This document shows, in pieces, positions 1,001 to 61,623 of a DNA stretch of 64,000 nucleotides. This DNA comes from Candidatus Poribacteria bacterium. GTDB taxonomy: Bacteria > Poribacteria > WGA-4E > WGA-3G. The notes beneath the pieces are model-generated. The model ran no database searches, was not told where the DNA came from, and saw only the letters and a list, made by a program, of their open reading frames with translations. A program made the translations under genes and the position numbers. Position 1 is the first letter of the stretch. Each line of letters starts with the position of its first letter. Location: contig CBDANF010000003.1 in the NCBI GenBank assembly GCA_965197475.1, positions 1,856,001-1,920,000 of the forward strand, read 5' to 3'.

Positions 1001-1831
1001 ATGGAGCAGCGAGAAATGGTTACGGCATTACGGACAGACTTTTCGGTTCGGCAGATATGTGAGACACTCGGTTTCAACCGAAGCAACCTCTATTATCACT
1101 CCAAGCAGGCCCCGTGTGAAGCGGGCCTCCAGGATGAAATAGAGACGTTATCTTTGCTATATCCAACATACGGATATAGGCGTCCCACACAGTTGTTGGT
1201 GCGTAGCGGATACACCATCGGGTATAAACGTGTTGCCCGATTGATGAAGTCCGCCAACCTCTCGGTTTCTGTCAAGCGTGTCTGTCAAACCACGACATCC
1301 GTTGCGGGTGTGCGTCCCTGGAGCAATCGCCTTGAAAACCTTGATGTCTCCCGATGTAATCAGGTCTGGGTGGGCGATATTACCTACGTCCGCCTCAAAG
1401 GACACTTTATCTATGTTTGTCTGCTCATGGATGTCTTCACTCGCATGATCAGAGGGTGGCATATCAGTCAACACTTGACGCAATCTCTGACGTTGAAACC
1501 CTTGGAGACAGCATTATGTCAAAGTGTCCCAGAGATCCATCATTCTGATCAAGGCGTTCAATATCTTTCAAATGCGTCCATCTCACTGCTTAGGCATCAT
1601 GGGATTGAGATTTCAGTCGCCCGGAGAGGGTGTCCTTGGGAGAACGGATATGCTGAAAGACTTATCCGCACGCTCAAGGAAGAAGAAGTTCATCTCAATG
1701 ACTATGAGGACATCCACGAAGCAAGAACCCGCATTGGGCATTTTATTACACAAGTGTATAATCACAAACGCCCTCACTCTGCGTTAGGGTATTTGACACC
1801 TGTGGAATTTGAGCAAAAAAACTTGTCTTAA
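1001..1831 (+). CDS. IS3 transposase OrfB (DDE integrase core)
   Basis: WVGDITY, HHSDQGVQY, ENGYAER, YNHKRPHSALGY motifs. Confidence 0.95.
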   Translation: MEQREMVTALRTDFSVRQICETLGFNRSNLYYHSKQAPCEAGLQDEIETLSLLYPTYGYRRPTQLLVRSGYTIGYKRVARLMKSANLSVSVKRVCQTTTSVAGVRPWSNRLENLDVSRCNQVWVGDITYVRLKGHFIYVCLLMDVFTRMIRGWHISQHLTQSLTLKPLETALCQSVPEIHHSDQGVQYLSNASISLLRHHGIEISVARRGCPWENGYAERLIRTLKEEEVHLNDYEDIHEARTRIGHFITQVYNHKRPHSALGYLTPVEFEQKNLS

Positions 1832-10693: not shown

Positions 10694-11524
10694 TTAAGAC
10701 AAGTTTTTTTGCTCAAATTCCACAGGTGTCAAATACCCTAACGCAGAGTGAGGGCGTTTGTGATTATACACTTGTGTAATAAAATGCCCAATGCGGGTTC
10801 TTGCTTCGTGGATGTCCTCATAGTCATTGAGATGAACTTCTTCTTCCTTGAGCGTGCGGATAAGTCTTTCAGCATATCCGTTCTCCCAAGGACACCCTCT
10901 CCGGGCGACTGAAATCTCAATCCCATGATGCCTAAGCAGTGAGATGGACGCATTTGAAAGATATTGAACGCCTTGATCAGAATGATGGATCTCTGGGACA
11001 CTTTGACATAATGCTGTCTCCAAGGGTTTCAACGTCAGAGATTGCGTCAAGTGTTGACTGATATGCCACCCTCTGATCATGCGAGTGAAGACATCCATGA
11101 GCAGACAAACATAGATAAAGTGTCCTTTGAGGCGGACGTAGGTAATATCGCCCACCCAGACCTGATTACATCGGGAGACATCAAGGTTTTCAAGGCGATT
11201 GCTCCAGGGACGCACACCCGCAACGGATGTCGTGGTTTGACAGACACGCTTGACAGAAACCGAGAGGTTGGCGGACTTCATCAATCGGGCAACACGTTTA
11301 TACCCGATGGTGTATCCGCTACGCACCAACAACTGTGTGGGACGCCTATATCCGTATGTTGGATATAGCAAAGATAACGTCTCTATTTCATCCTGGAGGC
11401 CCGCTTCACACGGGGCCTGCTTGGAGTGATAATAGAGGTTGCTTCGGTTGAAACCGAGTGTCTCACATATCTGCCGAACCGAAAAGTCTGTCCGTAATGC
11501 CGTAACCATTTCTCGCTGCTCCAT
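10694..11524 (-). CDS. IS3 transposase OrfB
   Basis: Protein identical to 1001-1831. Confidence 0.95.
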   Translation of the reverse strand: MEQREMVTALRTDFSVRQICETLGFNRSNLYYHSKQAPCEAGLQDEIETLSLLYPTYGYRRPTQLLVRSGYTIGYKRVARLMKSANLSVSVKRVCQTTTSVAGVRPWSNRLENLDVSRCNQVWVGDITYVRLKGHFIYVCLLMDVFTRMIRGWHISQHLTQSLTLKPLETALCQSVPEIHHSDQGVQYLSNASISLLRHHGIEISVARRGCPWENGYAERLIRTLKEEEVHLNDYEDIHEARTRIGHFITQVYNHKRPHSALGYLTPVEFEQKNLS

Positions 11525-13438: not shown

Positions 13439-14424
13439 GGCTCATGTAAAAAGTAAGTGCTATTTTTTCAAAGTTATGTTAGAGTGTTACCTATGGACTT
13501 TCCAATACAATCTCTCCTGGATGAAGAAAAAACTCAAGCGTGGGTGTTGGATCATTTCCACCTTCAAGGGCTGTGTTGCCCAAAATGCCAAGCGAGCGTG
13601 GCGGAGGCACGCAAGTTCCGTCCGACTGAAACAAGTGGTCTACAAGTGTATCGCTGCAAACACTGTGAGAGCATCTACAACCTCTATACCGGGACGGTCT
13701 TTGCTGGCACGCAGTTTCGTCCCTCACAGGTCGTTCTGCTTTTGCGCGGTGTCTGTCAAGGTGTTTCAAGTGCACAACTCGGGTGTGAACTGGGTCTAAG
13801 TCGTCAAACCGTTCTTTCTATAAGACGTAAACTCCAAACTTCGGCAGAGCAGATACAACCCGAAGCTGCTTTACCTGATGCTGAAGTCGAAACAGATGAG
13901 ATGTTTCAAAACGCCGGTGAAAAAGGCGATAAGCACGTTGATGCTTCGGATCCGCCGCGTCGGCGTGGCAATAAACGCAGGGGACATGGGACTTATGACA
14001 ATGATCGTCCGCCTATTGTTGGGACGAAAGGTCGCGAAAGCGGTCTCCTGAGATTACGTGTTGTGCGGCACACCGATTCTGCGACGCTTTCAACACACGT
14101 TCATCAGTGGACGTTGCCGACTTCAACGGTGTATACGGATGGTTGGCGTGGCTATAACCGTATTCAGCGCGCCCGTGAGATTGTTCTCCATAAGGATGGC
14201 GAGTGGGCAAGAGACGCAGACGGTGATGGTCTTTACGAGATCCATACAAGGACGATTGAAGGTGCCTGGACGACGCTGCGAAACTTCCTTCGTCCCTTTC
14301 GTGGCGTTCATAAAAAGTTCCTCGCCGGTTACGTCGCAATCTGTGAGTTCGTCATGAATCTAAAAGCTGTCAGTGTTGATTTTATAGCAAAACTTGTCAA
14401 AAGCACTTACTCTTGACATGAGCG
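13439..14424 (+). mobile_element. IS1595-family element A
   Basis: IRs GGCTCATGTAAAAAGTAAGTGC / GCACTTACTCTTGACATGAGCG. Confidence 0.9.
13493..14416 (+). CDS. IS1595-family transposase
   Basis: Zn ribbon CPKC..CKHC, HTH, ETDEM, YTDGW, TIEGAW. Confidence 0.9.
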   Translation: MDFPIQSLLDEEKTQAWVLDHFHLQGLCCPKCQASVAEARKFRPTETSGLQVYRCKHCESIYNLYTGTVFAGTQFRPSQVVLLLRGVCQGVSSAQLGCELGLSRQTVLSIRRKLQTSAEQIQPEAALPDAEVETDEMFQNAGEKGDKHVDASDPPRRRGNKRRGHGTYDNDRPPIVGTKGRESGLLRLRVVRHTDSATLSTHVHQWTLPTSTVYTDGWRGYNRIQRAREIVLHKDGEWARDADGDGLYEIHTRTIEGAWTTLRNFLRPFRGVHKKFLAGYVAICEFVMNLKAVSVDFIAKLVKSTYS

Positions 14425-14433
14425 AAGGGAAGT

Positions 14434-15418
14434 GGCTCATGTAAAAAGTAAGTGCTTTTTTCTTTCTTTCTGCTATAGTATAGCATATGGATTTTCCAAT
14501 ACTTTCTTTAATTGATGACGAACGCGCGGCGGAATGGTTGCTAAACCATTTCCATCCCCAGGGTTTACACTGTCCACATTGCGATGTGAGCGTGGCGGAG
14601 GCACGCTATTTTAGAACAACAAAAACAAGTCGCATAAAGGTTTACCGCTGTAAAGTATGTAAGGGTGTATATAACCTCTATAGTGGGACAGTGTTTGCTC
14701 AAAAACAGTATCGTCCTTCACAGGTAGTTCTGCTTTTGCAAGGTGTTTGCAAAGGTTTTTCTTCCGCTCAATTGGCACGCGAACTCAATATCAGTCGTCA
14801 AGCGGTGCTTTCCATACGGCGTGTGCTTCAGGCATCTGCCGAGATGATGCAACCTGAGGTAGCTTTGCCGGACACTGCAACAGAAACAGATGAGATGTTT
14901 CAAAACGCAGGTGAAAAAGGAGAACCGCATAAAGACCTGAAGGATCCACCGCGTCGGCGTGGTAATAAACGCAGAGGTCATGGCACTTATGCGAATGATC
15001 GTCCACCTATAGTCGGCACGATCGGGCGCAAAAGTAAGCGTGTCCGATTGCGTGTGGCACATCATACCGATAGTGCTACACTCTCATCACACGTGCATCA
15101 GTTCACGCTCCCCACTGCTACTGTATATACAGATGGATGGCGAGGCTATAATCGTATTGATCGTTCTCATGCGAGCGTGTGTCATGGTGATGGCGAATGG
15201 GCGAGGGATGACGATGCGGATGGTATTTTTGAAACCCATATCAACACGATTGAAGGTGTGTGGACAACGGTTCGTAACTTTCTCCGCCCATTTCGCGGTG
15301 TTCATAAAAAGTTCCTTTCGGGATATATCGCTATCTGTGAATTTGTTATTAATCTCAAATCTATTACTACTGAGTTTATATCACGACTCGTCCAACGCAC
15401 TCACTCATAACATGAGCC
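14434..15418 (+). mobile_element. IS1595-family element B (diverged tandem partner)
   Basis: Same IRL; IRR GCACTCACTCATAACATGAGCC; 9 bp downstream of element A. Confidence 0.9.
14487..15410 (+). CDS. IS1595-family transposase
   Basis: CPHC..CKVC, ETDEM, YTDGW, HINTIEGVW. Confidence 0.9.
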   Translation: MDFPILSLIDDERAAEWLLNHFHPQGLHCPHCDVSVAEARYFRTTKTSRIKVYRCKVCKGVYNLYSGTVFAQKQYRPSQVVLLLQGVCKGFSSAQLARELNISRQAVLSIRRVLQASAEMMQPEVALPDTATETDEMFQNAGEKGEPHKDLKDPPRRRGNKRRGHGTYANDRPPIVGTIGRKSKRVRLRVAHHTDSATLSSHVHQFTLPTATVYTDGWRGYNRIDRSHASVCHGDGEWARDDDADGIFETHINTIEGVWTTVRNFLRPFRGVHKKFLSGYIAICEFVINLKSITTEFISRLVQRTHS

Positions 15419-17927: not shown

Positions 17928-18998
17928 TACCAAATTAACTTGATTCATATTGTTTTTCGATTTCACAAATCCATTGAAAGCCGACATGTGCCTGCATAAT
18001 GTCCCAGTTTTTAGCGAACCATTGACACCGATTGACAAGCATCTTTCAAGAGACAAAAGTGTTTGGAATACATGATTGGCAACCATCTCTCGTAACAAAG
18101 GCCAAAGCCGTTCGGCAGGTTGTAGTTCGGGCGAATAAGGAGGTAAATAAAATAACTCAATGCCCGCAGGCACTCACACCGCTTTACTCGTGTGAAACCC
18201 TGCGCGATCTACAAGCAGCACTATCTGTTTCTTTGCTTCGGGGTTTACATCACGCGCAAACTCTGCTAACGCAAGGTTCATCACCTCAACACTGACGGTG
18301 GGCAACAGAAGCCAATAGGTATCACCTGTCTGAGGACGCACAAAACCGAATCCGTAAACCTAAACAGGTTCGTCTTCTACCCAAACTTCTACCGGTTTTC
18401 CGGGTGCTCACTTTCAAGGGCAGCGACGCGCGCTTTTAGTTTTTTAATGCCTGCTGTGCTTTCGGTGTCACAGATACCTGATGTTGTGGACGAGGTGTCT
18501 GTCCAGTCCAACCGAGGCGTTTGAGATACTTCCAACCTGACATGGCACGGACAGGGTGCTGAAGTCTCTCTGATATCCAAGCAGCAACTTTAGGACCTGT
18601 CCAAAGTCCACCATCAGCAGGAGGCGCAGAAAGTGCAGCCTCAAGTGCTGCTTGCTGTGTTTCATCCAGAAAACGGCACCTTCCATTGTTTTTGCGTTTG
18701 TCTCGTAGTGCTTTTTCACCCGCAGCGTTATAGCGTTTGAGTAGTTTGCGAACCCAGTCCGCAGTGCAACCTACAATATCAGCGACTTCGCGGGGTGTCC
18801 TCGGATGTGTGGTGTCAGCAAGAAGCCAAATAATATGCCAATGTGTCCGTTCCCGAGAACATTTACATTCAAGATACCTTTGTCTAAGAACTTCTGTCGT
18901 AAAATGGGGAAAACCCGTTGTTTAGTGTTTTTGTTTTCATGTGTTCACAATAACAATCTAAAAAACAAATACAAGAATATTTACGTTAATATGGTATA
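17926..18998 (-). mobile_element. Decayed IS630-family element
   Basis: IRs TATACCAAATTAAC / GTTAATATGGTATA; fragmented transposase with LPPYSPELQPAERLW. Confidence 0.85.
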
Positions 18999-19078: not shown

Positions 19079-20281
19079 TCAATTAGGGTTAGAGACAAGA
19101 CCTATCCCCGACGCAATCGCTTTATCCCAATCAGCAGTAAACACCCACCAATTTGTCATATCCGTATTCTTATATTGAATCCCATTCTTATGTCCAGGCA
19201 TATTTTGCATCCAATAGATATACCACTGTGACTCTATTCGTTGCGGAATTTTTTTGGGATCAGAGTCTGGCCATGCATACTTCAATTTTCCATAAGTATT
19301 GACGTTAACTAATTTCTTTGCTCCACTATTATCTGGTGTCCAATCTTCAATATCGCTTTCGACGAGTGTCATCGTTTCAGTATAGTCATAGTGTTTTACC
19401 GTATTTGGTGGCATGTGTGTCCAACCTGCGCGCCCGGTAATGAAGTTCCCATTTTCGTCTTGCCCAACAAATTTTTTCCAAAAGAGATCAGTATTGCCAT
19501 ATTGTAAATGATTGACGTGGCTCAATATTGCTTCTAATTGATGCCCGTGATTGTGTACCGCTTCTGCGTGGCTTCGTCTGAAGTTTTGCCCATAGACGGT
19601 ATAAGTAGAATTGTAGATAGGCAGATCCGTGTTATCTCGGTTGCTGTTGGAGATATCCCCCGTCAGTGGACTTGACATATTCGATTCCCACCAATTTCTA
19701 AAATCTTCAGGTTTATGGATAGCAGGGTCATAACATGGAAAATCAGAATTCACAGCACCCATCCATATCCATATCTCTTTGACACCTAAATCGTTGACAT
19801 AATGTTTCATGTTGAAGCGTTCAAAAATTTTATGATAATCAGGAGCGTAGAGAGGGGTACCATCCTTTAAATGGTCACAGACCGGTCCTTGCGGTGTTTG
19901 TTCATAAACGGTAATGTATTCTACCACACGATAATCGATTGATGGGACAGCAGCAGGATTTTTATAACCTCTGAACCGTGTTCCTTCTTCAAGCATGAAC
20001 TTTACCCGTTTATCAAAAAGATCAATTTTTGTCTTGAGCTCCGCTAAGGTAATTTCACCTAAATCCCAAAAATCGGGTGCTTTTGACACATCCACATTTA
20101 TACCGTCTGTTGTCGGTATAAATCTCATTATGACCACTGGGATTTCATTGATATGCCCTGGGGCGGGGGTAGCTAAATAAGGGTCAATTTTTTCAAATAC
20201 TGGAGGAATTTCCTCTGCAAATCCGTGCGTTGAATTCATTAGCATCATGATGAGCGCGCATCCTAATAAAATAGTCTTCAT
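19079..20281 (-). CDS. Secreted hypothetical protein (possible zincin-like)
   Basis: Signal peptide; EAVHNHGHQLE motif; 400-aa ORF. Confidence 0.75.
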   Translation of the reverse strand: MKTILLGCALIMMLMNSTHGFAEEIPPVFEKIDPYLATPAPGHINEIPVVIMRFIPTTDGINVDVSKAPDFWDLGEITLAELKTKIDLFDKRVKFMLEEGTRFRGYKNPAAVPSIDYRVVEYITVYEQTPQGPVCDHLKDGTPLYAPDYHKIFERFNMKHYVNDLGVKEIWIWMGAVNSDFPCYDPAIHKPEDFRNWWESNMSSPLTGDISNSNRDNTDLPIYNSTYTVYGQNFRRSHAEAVHNHGHQLEAILSHVNHLQYGNTDLFWKKFVGQDENGNFITGRAGWTHMPPNTVKHYDYTETMTLVESDIEDWTPDNSGAKKLVNVNTYGKLKYAWPDSDPKKIPQRIESQWYIYWMQNMPGHKNGIQYKNTDMTNWWVFTADWDKAIASGIGLVSNPN

Positions 20282-20419
20282 TTTGTGTATTGAAACGATA
20301 TCGTATAAAAAGAATCCTCATGTGCCTTGTAGCGCATGAGGATTAAAATAATATCAAATATGGTTAAATAAAAGTTTTCACAAACAGAAATGTGAAAGTA
20401 ATTCCAAATCCTAATCAAT

Positions 20420-20785
20420 TTATTCATCAAGTAGTTGTGCTGTAAAACGAGGCTTTTCACCAACTTCTTCAATTGCTTCAACTGCATCAATTAAAGTTGT
20501 CGTTTTAACTTTGTCTTTCTCAACTTTCAAAACGACCTTTTCGTCTGCTTGTGAAACACTGACGACCTCGGTAACACCTGCAACCTTACTAAGTGCATCC
20601 TGCACTTTACTGGTACAAGCACCTCAGACCATACCTGTTACGGTTAAGCTGATTTCTTCGATTGGAACATTTACCTCAGATTGTTGCGTCTCTTCCGATG
20701 GTTTCTCTGTAGTATCTTTTTGCTGGTTAGCACATCCAAAAACGACTACCAGCGCAAATAGGCAGATAAGTGCTTTTTTTAACAT
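20420..20785 (-). CDS. HMA-domain lipoprotein selenoprotein (GMV-U-GAC)
   Basis: Lipobox VFGC; in-frame TGA at 20626-20624 replaces the first Cys of GMxCxxC; frame continues as an HMA fold; hairpin AAGTGCA-GGA-TGCACTT downstream. Confidence 0.85.
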
Positions 20786-20951
20786 TTCAATAGATTCCTT
20801 CTTAAATATCTGATTTGGCACAAATAGTTAATAAAAATTTTTAAGTCTTATAACGGATATATTTATTGTTGTCCGAATTGTGTTACATACTGGACAATTA
20901 GCACAATATGACAGATGAAGGGCGAGAGACCTCGCCCTTGCAAGTCAGTCG

Positions 20952-21335
20952 TTAGTTTACGACAGAAGCCGTAAAGCGAGGATCTGCTTCAACAGCTTTA
21001 ATCAGAGCATCGTTTGTAACTTTGCCCTTTTCAACTTTAACGACAGCCTTCTTGGTGGATCTGTCAACACTGATAACCTCGGTGACACCCGTGACCTGAC
21101 TGAGTGCAGACTGCACTGCAGGGGGACACGCGCCTCATGTCATGCCCTCCACCAGAAGTGTCACTTCCTGAAAGGCAGCTTTTTGCGGAGTTGGAACCGT
21201 TGTTTCGTCCATCGGTTTTTCATCCGTAGCCATTGTGGTTTCTTCTGGCATTTCTGCCTGCTTACCGACCATACCACAACCCATCAGGAATGCAAAGGTA
21301 ACGAGGGAAATCAGCATTAATCTCGCGATATACAT
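20952..21335 (-). CDS. HMA-domain lipoprotein selenoprotein paralog (GMT-U-GAC)
   Basis: Lipobox LMGC; in-frame TGA at 21137-21135, then GACPPAVQSALSQVTGVTEV..RFTASVVN*; hairpin AGTGCA-GTC-TGCACT. Confidence 0.85.
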
Positions 21336-21554
21336 CGTTTTACCTCCTTCGTAAAATTACATCACCATTTTAACATATTTTAAATTATCATGTCAAGTCC
21401 TTTTTACTATGAACCCGATTTCTAACATCTTACAAGACAAGATGATGTCTACTGTACTGAAATTTAAGGTTGTTATACTTCTATGTATTTAATCTTGATC
21501 GGGGTTTGGGATGATATAAGGATCAGAATCATAGGTTTGGAGAATTATTGACTT

Positions 21555-22337
21555 TTAAGCTTTTTCTCTGTGTGCATCAAGGAATGGAAAGACCTTTTGT
21601 ATCCGTTGAAGCTGCTTGTGAATCGCAGCTGCCCGTTCAAATTGAAGCCTCGCAGAAGCACTATTCCGTTTTGTTACGAGATTAGCCTGTACTTTTTCAT
21701 ACTCTCCCTCCAGTAAGTTTACGATATTCATTATCATTTCTCCGTAGAGTTCGCGAGTGATGAGTGCAGCACAAGGCGCATAGCAACGTTTCATGTCGTA
21801 TTGTAAGCATGCCCGGTAACCTACAAGAGGTGTTATGATTTCTTGACAAGTACGAATCATGAAAATCCGTTGCAACACATCAATCGCCTCATCTGTCCAT
21901 CGCCGACTCGATAACGGACCGAAGTATCTGGCGTTATCTGCTTGAATTTCTGGAACCCTTTCAAGACGTGGAAAATCCTCTCCAACGTCTATCCGAATAT
22001 ACCATGTCTGAATTCCATACTTCAAAGCCGAATTATATGATGGCTGATGCTCTTTAATTAAACGTGATTCTAAGAAGAGTGCCTCTTGTTCTGATTGGCA
22101 AATCTGATAACGGACAGACGTTGTCCATCGAATAAGCCGTTTGATTTTGGAGCGTCGATTTTTCGTATTATGGACGTAGGAACGTACGCGCTTGCGTAAA
22201 CATTTCGCTTTGCCGATATATAGGATTTTGCCCGAAGTACCTTGAAAAAAGTAGACACCCGGATCCGATGGAATGTCTTGGACCATTTCTTTCGTTAGCA
22301 TTTCAGTTTCCGTTAAGGTCTTTACAAGTAAAAACAA
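21555..22337 (-). CDS. UvrC/Cho-like GIY-YIG nuclease (N-terminal UvrC domains only)
   Basis: PGVYFF..LYIGKAKCLRKRVRSY, RYFGP, C..CYAPC, FERAA; true start may be 22301. Confidence 0.85.
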   Translation of the reverse strand: MFLLVKTLTETEMLTKEMVQDIPSDPGVYFFQGTSGKILYIGKAKCLRKRVRSYVHNTKNRRSKIKRLIRWTTSVRYQICQSEQEALFLESRLIKEHQPSYNSALKYGIQTWYIRIDVGEDFPRLERVPEIQADNARYFGPLSSRRWTDEAIDVLQRIFMIRTCQEIITPLVGYRACLQYDMKRCYAPCAALITRELYGEMIMNIVNLLEGEYEKVQANLVTKRNSASARLQFERAAAIHKQLQRIQKVFPFLDAHREKA

Positions 22338-24389: not shown

Positions 24390-25709
24390 ATGCAAAAACC
24401 GGACATTGTTGTTTACCTGTCTGATGACCATGGGTGGGAATACCTTGGTTGCTACGGAAACACGCATATCCAAACACCGCACTTAGATCGCATTGCAAAA
24501 GAAGGGATGCGTTTTACACATGCTTTTACGCCGACTCCAACGTGTGTTCCTTCCCGTTCGACTCTGTACACCGGACTCTATCCTGCTCGGCATGGGGCAA
24601 TGGGAAATCACACGGAATGTAATTCAACACTTGAAGCGTTGCCGAAAATGCTCAGAAAACTCGGTTATCGTGTGGCAATTGCAGGAAAAACGCATGTGAA
24701 ACCAGAAACGCTTTTTGATTTTGAGTATGTCGGTGGATTTCCTCCGAAGCGTGCAGAACATGCCCGGAAATATCGCGCAGAAGGTCTTGATACCGCACCG
24801 GTTGAAAGTTTTCTTTCAACACATCGGCAAGAAAATCCAGACCAACCAATCTGTCTTATCCTTGGGGATAGCAACTTGCACGTCACATGGGAACCGAATA
24901 AAATCTATAACCCCGATGCTTTGCCACTGCCTCCGTATTTTGCAGATACGCTGATCGCTCGAAAAGCACTTGCTAACTATTATCAGGACATTACTACAAT
25001 GGATATCCGCATCGGTAAAATTGATAGAATGTTGGAAACGCACGGATATGCAGACAACACACTTTTCATTTATACAACCGATCACGGTTCCGAGTGGCCG
25101 CATTGCAAATGGACATTGTATGATACCGGTATTCGTCTACCGTTTATCGCAAGGTGGCGCGGTGTGCTTCCCGCTGCAACCGTTACCGATGCGATGATTT
25201 CCCATATCGATTTTCTGCCAACACTTATAGATATTGCTGGCGGTGAACCGTCAGAAGATTTAGATGGTAGAAGTTTTAAGGATATTTTGTGTGGACAGCA
25301 GGCAACTTTTCGTGATAAAATTTACGGTACGCATACACGTGACGGGGATATGAACGTCTTCCCGCAACGATGCGTCCGAGATAATCAATACAAATATATT
25401 TTGAACCTGATGCCCGAAAATAGATGGACAACTCATTTTACTGAGGTTGAAGGAATTCCAGAAAGCCATGCAGAGGTGTGGAACAGTTGGGTGGAAAAGG
25501 CGAAAAGCGACCCGAAAACTGCTCAACTTGTTTACTTGACACAACACCACCCTGTTGAGGAACTGTATGATGTCCATGCGGATCCGTCCGAATTCAACAA
25601 TTTAGCATTTGAGGCAACATCGCGCCCTACACTTGAAAAAATGCGCGCCGATGTGTTGCAATGGATGCAATCACAAGGAGATAAAGGAGAATCTGAAAAT
25701 GAAAAATAA
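24390..25709 (+). CDS. Sulfatase (sulfamidase-like)
   Basis: SDDHG, CVPSR (CxPxR), GKTH, TDHG. Confidence 0.92.
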   Translation: MQKPDIVVYLSDDHGWEYLGCYGNTHIQTPHLDRIAKEGMRFTHAFTPTPTCVPSRSTLYTGLYPARHGAMGNHTECNSTLEALPKMLRKLGYRVAIAGKTHVKPETLFDFEYVGGFPPKRAEHARKYRAEGLDTAPVESFLSTHRQENPDQPICLILGDSNLHVTWEPNKIYNPDALPLPPYFADTLIARKALANYYQDITTMDIRIGKIDRMLETHGYADNTLFIYTTDHGSEWPHCKWTLYDTGIRLPFIARWRGVLPAATVTDAMISHIDFLPTLIDIAGGEPSEDLDGRSFKDILCGQQATFRDKIYGTHTRDGDMNVFPQRCVRDNQYKYILNLMPENRWTTHFTEVEGIPESHAEVWNSWVEKAKSDPKTAQLVYLTQHHPVEELYDVHADPSEFNNLAFEATSRPTLEKMRADVLQWMQSQGDKGESENEK

Positions 25710-26289
25710 ACTTATTAATGAACTTGTTTACGTTGCGCTAATCGTCGCGACGCTTATGTGTTTGGCTTGTATTGATACTGACGTGCTTATTGATATTACA
25801 AACCCACAGGAGGACACACCGTTACCGCCAGGGGAAGGGTTGGCAGAAGGTGCAACAGCACCAGCATTTTTGCTTCCGGATGCTGATGGCAATTTACTTT
25901 CACTTTCCAACTATGCTGGTCAAAAGTTAGTAATTGTTTTCTATGCCACTGGGACGTGAACGGTCTGTCGATCGCAACTCGGTGAGTTGCAAACAGGATA
26001 TGAAGATATTAAAGCGGGAGGTGTTGAACTGATTGCAATTAGTAGTGATACTCAGTTTGGTACGGGTAATACGCGGCAGGACCTACAAATTACTTTTCCG
26101 CTGCTTTCGGACGGGGACTTGGAAGCTATAACTGATTACAACGTGGTTGAACAAGCTACTCCATTTTTGGCACGTCCTACTACTTACATTATTGATGAAA
26201 GTGGTATAATCGTATGGAAAGACATTGGTGTAAGGTTCGGTCATCGTACTACTTCAGGAGAGATTATCGCAGCATTGCAAGGATTGTAG
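25699..26289 (+). CDS. AhpC/TSA peroxiredoxin-like lipoprotein selenoprotein (U-TVC)
   Basis: Lipobox CLAC; VIVFYATGT-TGA(25957-25959)-TVCRSQLGELQ in frame; perfect hairpin GCAACTC-GGT-GAGTTGC at 25974-25990. Confidence 0.87.
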
Positions 26290-60585: not shown

Positions 60586-60880
60586 AGTCTGGCTGGTTGA
60601 CCTGGCATGGTAGCCAAAGTTAGACCTTGCCTCGTCATTAGCACACCCGCCTTGTGCAAGATCGTGCGCTTGTAACCGTTGTAACGCATACAACAAGCAC
60701 ACGCGGTTCAAGGTTTGAAGTCCCTGTGAGAACAAGATATTTGGATGCTGCCGGTGTTTTTGATGCACAAAGTGTATAGTTACCGTACCCGAGGCGAAGT
60801 TCTTGAGGAAATTAGGCACTCTCCAACCCGACCAACTATCTGCGATAGAAGATGCAGTGCGTCAATGGTTGAAACTCTAA
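60563..60880 (+). pseudogene. Frameshifted PemK/MazF toxin
   Basis: RGEVWLVDL / MVAKVRPCLVIS / RGSRFEV / IEDAVRQWL spread across frames. Confidence 0.75.
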
Positions 60881-61623
60881 CCCAACCTACGAGTTCCTTT
60901 CTGCCTGCTAACTTTTAGAATAGGAAGTGTTTCTTCATCCTCTAAGAGTGCAAGTGCCTCTGCAATGAGTGCGTGCTGTAGTATCGGATTATTCGGTTCT
61001 CCAAGCGGATGTCCAAAACCGTACGGAACAAGTAACACACGCGGCGGTTTCACTTTCTTCGCAATGCTTTCAACAAGCGCAATTGAAACTGTGGAAATCC
61101 CTACTTCTTCAACAGCACGTTGTATCAACCCTACAGACTGATTGCACATCGGTCACACAGGAGTTAAAAAAGCGACGTTCACCTCATCTGTTTTAAGCAT
61201 CTGTGCAACCTCTGGTGCGGTTTGTGCAATAAGGGGTTTCGGTTTTGTGATTGACCCCATAAAACTAAAATGCCTATGATTGAGCGAACCGATTTTGCCT
61301 TCGGTCTCCAACTCCCTGAATCTATCAAGTGGAAACGCCAAGTTCACATCATTTTCAATACCGCTGTCATCATAAGCCTCACTTTTATGTCCACTATTTA
61401 GTTCTTGTGTCTGAATAGAATTTGGGATCTCGCGGTACGAACAATCATTCTTCTCAAAGGAATTTTGATTAGAGAGATAAAATCCAGCAGTTGTGATGAG
61501 TGCAACTTTACACTCTTTCAACGGCAAGGACAGCGGTGTGTTAGGAGATGTTTTATAACGCTGAATGCGATAAAACTTCATAAAGAATTGAATTATATGA
61601 TCAATTTTACGTAAAGATGCCAT
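60877..61623 (-). CDS. PrdB/GrdB-like selenoprotein B family protein (PV-U-PMC)
   Basis: VALITTAG, FPLDR, SFMG, AFLTPV-TGA(61155-61153)-PMCNQSVGLIQR, PPR, GHPLG; SECIS-like stem ATCAGTCT-GTA-GGGTTGAT. Confidence 0.9.

Follow-up and report, generated by a model that had tools for sequence, protein, structure and literature searches.

A stretch of 64,000 nucleotides of Candidatus Poribacteria DNA (contig CBDANF010000003.1; hereafter 'the window', to which all coordinates refer) contains two adjacent reverse-strand genes, here called A and B, that we read as genuine selenoprotein genes. Their products would be exported, lipid-anchored metal binders, each carrying an HMA domain in which selenocysteine (Sec) replaces the first cysteine of the metal-binding loop, with a hairpin shortly after the Sec codon serving as the selenocysteine insertion sequence (SECIS). 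We put the probability of this reading at about 0.8.

Gene B, the upstream member of the pair (20952–21335, reverse strand; stop codon TAA at 20952–20954), encodes 127 residues including U67; gene A, which follows after a gap of 166 bp (20420–20785, reverse strand; TAA at 20420–20422), encodes 121 residues including U54. In both, an in-frame UGA—located at 21135–21137 in gene B and 20624–20626 in gene A, again on the reverse strand—occupies the first Cys position of a GMxCxxC motif, the loops reading GMT-U-GAC and GMV-U-GAC respectively. Translation table 11 splits each gene into two open reading frames (ORFs; 66 + 54 and 65 + 61 aa), and the public records list the halves. An earlier note on this DNA, made from its letters, had described tandem paralogues, each consisting of a lipobox, a linker and an HMA domain and each hidden as split ORFs; both read-through proteins bear this out. 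For gene A we prefer the ATG at 20785 over an alternative GTG at 20821 as start codon, since homologues begin MLK(K/R)AL and an AAGGA lies upstream.

Conservation of the in-frame UGA

An alignment of the gene A and gene B proteins with 12 close database relatives (A1) was scanned against one genome per species, yielding 80 loci (L001–L080). The best ten (L001–L010) all derive from Candidatus Poribacteria, as do L011 and L013, and the tandem HMA pair is found in 10/10 of L001–L010, within a gene order kept between window and relatives: Prx-like (peroxiredoxin-like), sulfatase, PhyH, LamG, GIY-YIG protein, HMA pair. Proteins around the pair in the window are 72–87% identical to their counterparts at these loci, which, together with the shared gene order, points to a poribacterial origin of the window; the orthologues of gene B hold the first position of the pair in L001–L010, and relatives of gene A the second position in L001, L003 and L010.

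Across the window and L001–L010 (11 assemblies, several of them single-contig chromosomes) a TGA stands at the first Cys codon of GMxCxxC in 22/22 genes; the motif is UxxC in every one, no further stop occurs in the 48 codons after the TGA, and the Sec codon is kept in both paralogues in 11/11 genomes examined. Pairwise differences among the 22 genes after the TGA number 2334, 2105 and 5515 at codon positions 1, 2 and 3, as compared with 699, 388 and 1403 over the 12 codons before it, a codon-position bias that indicates coding constraint on both sides of the TGA. The earlier note's observation that the frame continues intact past the TGA therefore extends to all 22 genes, and the conservation on both sides that it proposed to look for, together with the alignment of the TGA to Cys in homologues, is found. 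In a tree of 31 domain sequences (73 columns; 10 of 28 inner branches unresolved) the genomes form two groups, one comprising the window, L001, L003 and L010, the other L002 and L004–L009; the two pair positions are distinct within each group, indicating that both paralogues have kept Sec since before these genomes diverged, and the tree separates neither one duplication from more, nor a Sec-ancestral from a Cys-ancestral domain.

The protein database holds 33 near-length matches, 28 of which were inspected. Twelve of these have W in the TGA column, four stop at GM(T), right before the TGA, four start right after it, and eight are full-length Cys forms (GMTCGAC), two of them source-named Candidatus Scalindua and Candidatus Wunengus; the Cys forms thus include homologues from anammox bacteria. 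A profile search of 1.84 billion representatives returned 6782 proteins at E ≤ 0.001, mostly multi-HMA, and added one W-type lipoprotein (P0242) as well as a Cys-type lipoprotein of the same architecture (P0231); Cys thus aligns with the TGA in the eight full-length forms, in P0231 and in L011 and L013. Judged from the sequences, the W in database homologues is probably TGA translated under code 4 by gene callers working on short contigs; if true, the choice of code 4 for short contigs that hold a selenoprotein gene amounts to a systematic annotation artefact. A search of short proteins returned 61 fragments, the named NCBI rows among them being 'hypothetical protein' of Candidatus Poribacteria.

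Some further relatives merit separate mention. Proteins with W at the Sec position are P0009, P0010, P0015, P0016, P0018–P0023, P0025, P0032, P0106, P0107 and P0242. L011 and L013 (~10055) each encode a long WD40-repeat protein that ends in a Cys-type HMA domain (GMTCGAC). For the multi-HMA relatives P0011–P0014, P0031, P0036, P0103 and P0111, the predicted proteins start just after a TGA-type first domain; what follows is either a run of Cys-type domains, between one and three in number, or a stop at a second GMT, a pattern which implies, from sequence, putative arrays containing at least two Sec.

A hairpin specific to the UGA-containing genes

Numbering from the U of the UGA as base 1, bases 22–26 (GUGCA) pair with bases 30–34 (UGCAC), mostly extended by a 21:35 pair; the loop begins at base 27, 23 nt after the UGA, its G being the 24th base after the TGA. 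In gene B (21103–21117, reverse strand) the element reads A-GUGCA-GUC-UGCAC-U, a 6-bp stem closed by a GUC loop; in gene A (20591–20607, reverse strand) it reads AA-GUGCA-GGA-UGCAC-UU, a 7-bp stem with a GGA loop. The hairpin is present in 22/22 TGA genes with 131/132 cells paired, as compared with 8–55% for partners displaced by one to three columns. The loop begins with G in all cases; its second base is G in 19 genes and U in 3, and its third can be any base.

Conservation at synonymous sites follows the same boundaries. Variation is seen at 44 of the 48 third-codon positions that follow the TGA; the invariant four belong to codons 7–10, which is exactly the hairpin. At codon 9 the amino acid itself changes (D, S, G or A), and the final T, which pairs with A26, is always kept. 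A hairpin with its loop G at +24, maintained while nearby codons diverge, had been reported for the two window genes; it holds for 22/22 genes, and its third positions are the only ones that do not vary. The Cys-type counterparts lack it: among the Cys-type HMA motifs of L011–L080, 0/120 pair at all five positions and 4 pair at four, and in the Poribacteria Cys forms (L011, L013) the same V-Q-x-A-L is encoded by other codons, with 3/5 positions pairing. Within the window, exact matches to GTGCAGNNTGCAC occur only at the two HMA hairpins; allowing one mismatch gives 6 strand-matches against 0.92 expected, a number reached by 0/100 shuffles, and across the 80 loci the exact motif appears once outside the HMA pair genes.

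The element also resembles a known SECIS. On the E. coli K-12 sequence, the likeness to the upper stem of the fdhF SECIS that had been suggested is confirmed: both have an apical UGCA-G..-UGCA with G first in the loop, fdhF reading UGCA-GGUC-UGCA with a 4-nt loop from base 22, the HMA pair UGCA-GUC/GGA-UGCA with a 3-nt loop from base 27. The fdhF SECIS also contains a bulged U, for which no counterpart is seen in the HMA pair hairpins. The bacterial SECIS (bSECIS) model, as outlined in PMC13188914, specifies a loop of 3–9 nt, a stem of 4–16 bp, G in the first two loop positions, a distance of 16–37 nt from the UGA and a minimum free energy of at most −7.5 kcal/mol. With a 3-nt loop, a stem of 5–7 bp, G first in 22/22 and a spacing of 23 nt, the hairpins fall inside its structural bounds, and the 60-nt stretch starting at the UGA folds at −26.7 and −18.4 kcal/mol, within the energy limit. 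The gene A hairpin (−7.4 kcal/mol) is more stable than expected by chance (z −3.15; 1/200 shuffles as good).

Fold and predicted export of the encoded proteins

Both read-through proteins score above the gathering threshold (24.8 bits) of the Pfam HMA family (PF00403), gene B at 36.4 bits and gene A at 29.7 bits, the match spanning the TGA. An AlphaFold2 model built on A1 (gene B numbering, U67) adopts the beta-alpha-beta-beta-alpha-beta HMA fold over residues 55–125, with a predicted local distance difference test score (pLDDT) of ~78–92 across 51–127; strands occupy 55–63, 84–91, 96–102 and 122–125, and helices 70–79 and 108–116. This places U67 in the beta1–alpha1 loop (64–69) and C70 at the start of helix 1. 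The model also has an N-terminal helix, corresponding to the signal peptide, and a disordered segment at residues 24–50 (pLDDT <50).

Foldseek returns MerP as the top match for this model (1osd, 44% identity, target TM-score 0.90; 1afi, 44%, 0.84), then copper ATPase domains and CopZ. The PDB structure search gave 65 matches at E up to 0.001, all HMA among the ~50 matches listed, and in the PDB sequence search the best single-domain match is again MerP (E 3.6e-10). No curated NCBIfam model is reached by either protein.

At the N-terminus, a hydrophobic start followed by a lipobox-like [LVIMFA]-x-[GA]-C, in keeping with the lipobox consensus, can be picked out by eye in 22/22 genes. In gene B the putative signal peptide (21276–21335, reverse strand) runs to a lipobox L-M-G-C20, and in gene A (20732–20785, reverse strand) to V-F-G-C18, both patterns likewise read by eye; C20 is invariant in A1. 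The linker after each lipobox is rich in E, T, P and Q.

Indirect support for selenocysteine use in this organism

TGA serves as an ordinary stop in this DNA, ending 6 of 30 long window ORFs (29 with a Pfam match plus a conserved 400-aa ORF), which excludes a general reassignment of the codon. A read-through script run over the window found two further selenoprotein candidates, one Prx-like and one PrdB-like.

The Prx-like (AhpC/TSA) candidate (~25699–26289, forward strand) carries a TGA at 25957–25959, within the motif T-U-T-V-C, at the active-site Cys position; the AhpC-TSA match spans it at 103.4 bits, and the N-terminus is lipobox-like. Both halves of the gene are conserved in 9/10 loci and the TGA is found by pattern in at least 7/10 (L002 and L003 give no pattern match, L006 no hit). 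A hairpin of the same design as those of the HMA pair, GCAACUC-GGU-GAGUUGC, begins 14 nt after the UGA, its 7-bp stem bringing the loop to 21 nt after; in L004 one A-U pair is replaced by G-C, a compensatory change, and in L010 there is one mismatch. A compact consensus—a 5–7 bp stem with a G(G/U)N triloop 21–23 nt after the UGA—is hence common to two unrelated genes of the phylum (HMA and Prx-like), and could help to find the rest of the poribacterial selenoproteome. The PrdB/GrdB-like candidate (60880–61623, reverse strand; TGA at 61153–61155, motif T-P-V-U-P-M-C) matches TIGR04483 over residues 29–232, across U157, at 158.6 bits, below the cut-off of 300; we saw no clear SECIS-like hairpin in it and no adjoining prd or grd partner genes. 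An in-frame TGA in the remnant of an IS630-type transposase gene (17928–18359, reverse strand) is read as part of a broken gene, not as Sec.

For the phylum more widely, the supplement of PMC13582414 records one Poribacteria metagenome-assembled genome (MAG) that has two tRNA(Sec) genes; the columns of protein accessions in its entry are taken to be SelA, SelB and SelD. SelA and SelB are described in PMC5649159 as co-occurring in most sponge-symbiont bins.

Proposed function and competing explanations

We propose that the UGA at codon 67 of gene B and codon 54 of gene A would be read as Sec, the hairpin GUGCA-G(G/U)N-UGCAC acting as a bacterial SECIS that recruits SelB with Sec-tRNA(Sec). The products would then be exported and lipidated at Cys20 or Cys18, leaving a disordered linker of ~30 residues to tether a MerP-like HMA domain on the periplasmic side. 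There, a soft metal ion—Hg(II), Cu(I), Ag(I) and Cd(II) being the candidates—might be bound jointly by the Sec selenolate and the thiolate of the Cys three positions on, much as MerP coordinates Hg(II) through its cysteine pair, so that the protein could work either as a periplasmic trap or as a chaperone that hands its metal over. By analogy, an extracytoplasmic metal binder that uses a selenolate fits both the fold and the likeness to MerP.

Several results weigh against this assignment. At −7.0 and −7.4 kcal/mol, the minimal hairpins fall slightly short of the −7.5 limit of the model, and the energy of the gene B hairpin is unremarkable (z −0.52; 53/200 shuffles fold as well). Covariation analysis (RNAalifold and pair counts) found no double changes, with 500/500 shuffles equalling the observed score, as follows from an invariant stem; given this and the weak gene B energy, the argument for the hairpin draws on the conservation of synonymous sites, on the lack of such a hairpin in the Cys forms and on the rarity of its motif elsewhere in the window and the 80 loci. 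Rfam returns 0 matches for the whole window at gathering thresholds, and for the locus at E up to 10 there are just 5 weak matches, to snoRNA, miRNA and sRNA families. None of selA, selB, selD or tRNA(Sec), nor a tRNA of any other kind, lies in the window, and a tRNA scan of 12 Poribacteria loci detected no tRNA. The lipoprotein status is a prediction from a motif read by eye, and near the pair there is no conserved metal transporter, reductase or regulator to name the metal.

The chief rival accepts the selenoproteins as real and makes them redox proteins, U-x-x-C cycling between selenol/thiol and selenenylsulfide in a periplasmic oxidoreductase or peroxide scavenger. To judge from the accounts in PMC2398784 and PMC13188914, most bacterial UxxC selenoproteins are indeed redox proteins; 1osd, the best structural match, shows MerP in its oxidised, disulfide state, the syntenic block that holds the pair also includes a Sec-type Prx-like gene, and no metal-handling gene neighbours the pair. 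All sequence and fold matches, however, are to metal-binding HMA domains with a full GMxCxxC; none is to a thioredoxin fold or a known oxidoreductase family, and the known Sec-HMA families are annotated as metal-binding. We consider a redox role unlikely. More improbable still is that UGA and hairpin are decoded as Cys, by a SelC-like tRNA charged with Cys (tRNA-ReC) and delivered by SelB, giving a mature CxxC protein. SECIS-dependent recoding of UGA to Cys has been described (Vargas-Rodriguez et al. 2018, as cited in PMC13582414), and the same source reports such tRNAs from some Sec-using genomes; by its figures, however, they are enriched in UXXU-type genomes and found in ~2.3% of other Sec-type genomes, and in its supplement the tRNAs of the Poribacteria MAG are both labelled tRNA(Sec).

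That the TGAs are true stops—the genes being pseudogenes, pairs of small ORFs or products of assembly error—or else encode Trp or Gly throughout is contradicted by the data, and we give it next to no weight. It would account for public annotation of the halves as separate hypothetical proteins, with their 61 short matches, and for the W at the site in 12 database proteins. Pseudogenes or sequencing errors would not, however, be expected to place TGA at one and the same codon in 22/22 genes of 11 assemblies, single-contig chromosomes included, nor to leave the frame open and constrained beyond it; the C-terminal half on its own would lack strand 1 and the metal loop, and an altered code is at odds with the 6/30 ordinary ORFs that end in TGA.

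Beyond the Sec-HMA metal binder itself, one may imagine a wider role, in which the pair forms a self-contained, Poribacteria-specific selenium-based periplasmic metal module that passes on or sequesters Hg, Cu or Ag without a mer or cop partner, possibly adapted to seawater or to sponge tissue that accumulates metals; the multi-domain relatives would then be enlarged traps. We offer this as a speculation, with the odds well against it.

Relation to known systems

The nearest known protein is MerP (1afi, 1osd, TIGR02052), which shares with the HMA pair an exported single HMA domain and a GMTCxxC-type loop. MerP is a soluble periplasmic protein; here, in contrast, the first ligand would be Sec and the domain is predicted to be anchored through a lipobox and a long linker. 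Scores against TIGR02052 (50.3 and 28.2 bits) lie below its cut-off of 92.55, and the mer operon context is absent, with no merT, merA or merR in the window or in L002, L005 and L010. CopZ/Atx1 chaperones (NF033795, NF047957; 1cpz, 6ff2) are alike in sequence and fold, having a single HMA domain with an MxCxxC loop. These chaperones are cytosolic and pair with P-type ATPases, whereas the proteins of the HMA pair carry a signal for export and no ATPase gene adjoins them; none of the chaperone models is matched above its cut-off.

Selenium in sites of this type has precedents, and the caveat attached to the original observation, that some Sec-HMA proteins may already be catalogued, was well placed: NF041115, NF045683 and Sec P-type ATPases all exist. 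NF041115 (UxxU_metal_bind), the best or second-best NCBIfam match of the pair, describes a small HMA-like domain with Sec in its metal-binding motif. It is, however, a 74-position model with two Sec (UxxU), as against UxxC with a signal peptide and linker in the HMA pair, whose scores of 40.7 and 50.0 bits are well short of the cut-off (95). The catalogue portions of PMC13188914 and PMC9312934 include a UxxU 'putative mercuric reductase' or metal-binding protein, and these reviews, of 2026 and 2022, also list in those portions a UxxC cation ATPase and a MerT-type transporter. NF045683 (MerT/CopZ fusion-like selenoprotein) and the Sec E1-E2 cation ATPase (UxxC; entered in the catalogues of Zhang and Gladyshev, where we assume its UxxC to lie in the HMA domain) similarly place Sec in heavy-metal transport. 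They are membrane transporters or fusions, unlike the stand-alone lipoproteins described here, and against NF045683 the pair scores 24.2 and 41 bits, far from its cut-off of 375, with only profile positions 162–220 and 151–229 of 235 matching. A 'MerP' selenoprotein listed in the Global Ocean Sampling (GOS) catalogue, according to the tables of PMC2398784, was considered as a member of the same family and set aside, the entry being a 33-residue fragment without a GMxUxxC motif.

A full-text literature search, with subscription journals and PDF supplements outside its scope, turned up no account of a UxxC HMA family of stand-alone lipoproteins or of a poribacterial selenoproteome, and PF00403 does not occur in the 2026 selenoprotein review. 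Sec in HMA-type sites is already known, so the HMA pair is an unlisted and misannotated real family, not a new principle. With it, the few cases in which selenium would serve as a metal ligand and not as a redox centre gain a UxxC form that is exported and lipid-anchored; as Cys-type homologues occur alongside, the same metal site is available with Sec and with Cys for a direct comparison of affinity and resistance to oxidation. In practical terms, automatic annotation splits these genes and the NCBI selenoprotein models score them below their cut-offs; a family-specific model would mend the annotation across Poribacteria and related metagenome sequences.

Transcriptional arrangement and genomic neighbourhood

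A Shine-Dalgarno-like AGGAGG (21343–21348, reverse strand) stands 7 nt before the gene B ATG, as read from the sequence, and further upstream is a promoter-like TTGACA-18-TAAAAT with TG before the second hexamer (21367–21396, reverse strand; 11/12 matches), a match to consensus only: four promoter-like sites in the region are no more than shuffles give (mean 4.5). Just 3′ of the gene B stop lies a G+C-rich hairpin (20918–20939, reverse strand), a possible terminator without a clean U run, the 56-nt stretch containing it folding at −22 kcal/mol (z −3.82). Between gene A and the next gene, a terminator-like hairpin (20313–20344, reverse strand) is followed by UUCUUUUUAU, a U run; it folds at −19.7 kcal/mol (z −5.31; 0/200 shuffles as good). 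A terminator scan called neither the hairpin 3′ of gene A nor that 3′ of gene B. Each gene is preceded by a ribosome-binding site of its own, and A and B are probably transcribed as two separate units.

Surrounding genes were compared with Pfam for 35 of 41 window ORFs of ≥150 aa, the six omitted being overlapping shadow frames, and for 46 of 57 ORFs within 10 kb of the pair in L002, L005 and L010, where the 11 omitted were antisense shadows of the HMA genes and genes placed by synteny. No P-type ATPase, mer, cop or cus family was found among the 35 window ORFs or among the 46 of the related loci, so that the reported lack of an adjoining metal ATPase or mer gene holds for the window and for these three relatives. 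A Cation_efflux gene, considered as a linked metal gene, is near the pair in L010 only, and no functional link was drawn. The window also encodes WD40/LRR, TPR-LamG, sulfatase and PhyH proteins, among others.

Neither immediate neighbour of the pair was retained as a functional partner. Downstream of gene A, and separated from it by the terminator-like hairpin, is a gene for a 400-aa exported protein (19079–20281, reverse strand) whose sequence includes a His-rich stretch and matches nothing in Pfam or NCBIfam, and for which the Atlas gives only unnamed hypothetical clusters; it follows the pair in just 3/10 loci (L001, L003, L010) and belongs to no family. Directly upstream of the pair in 10/10 loci is a gene for a GIY-YIG protein of 260 aa (21555–22337, reverse strand), which matches only the N-terminal 230 positions of UvrC (TIGR00194; 215.5 bits against a cut-off of 285.45) and, although syntenic in 10/10, is part of a longer conserved block.

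Further afield, the window contains mobile elements. Two adjacent IS1595-type transposase ORFs lie at 13457–15410 (forward strand). An rve-type transposase ORF occurs in two inverted copies that score identically against Pfam, one at 1001–1831 (forward) and the other at 10694–11524 (reverse). The ~9 kb bracketed by them, in which genes for a VWA/CoxE protein, a dehydrogenase, a methylase-HNH fusion and a DUF4238 protein are found, may belong to a composite element.

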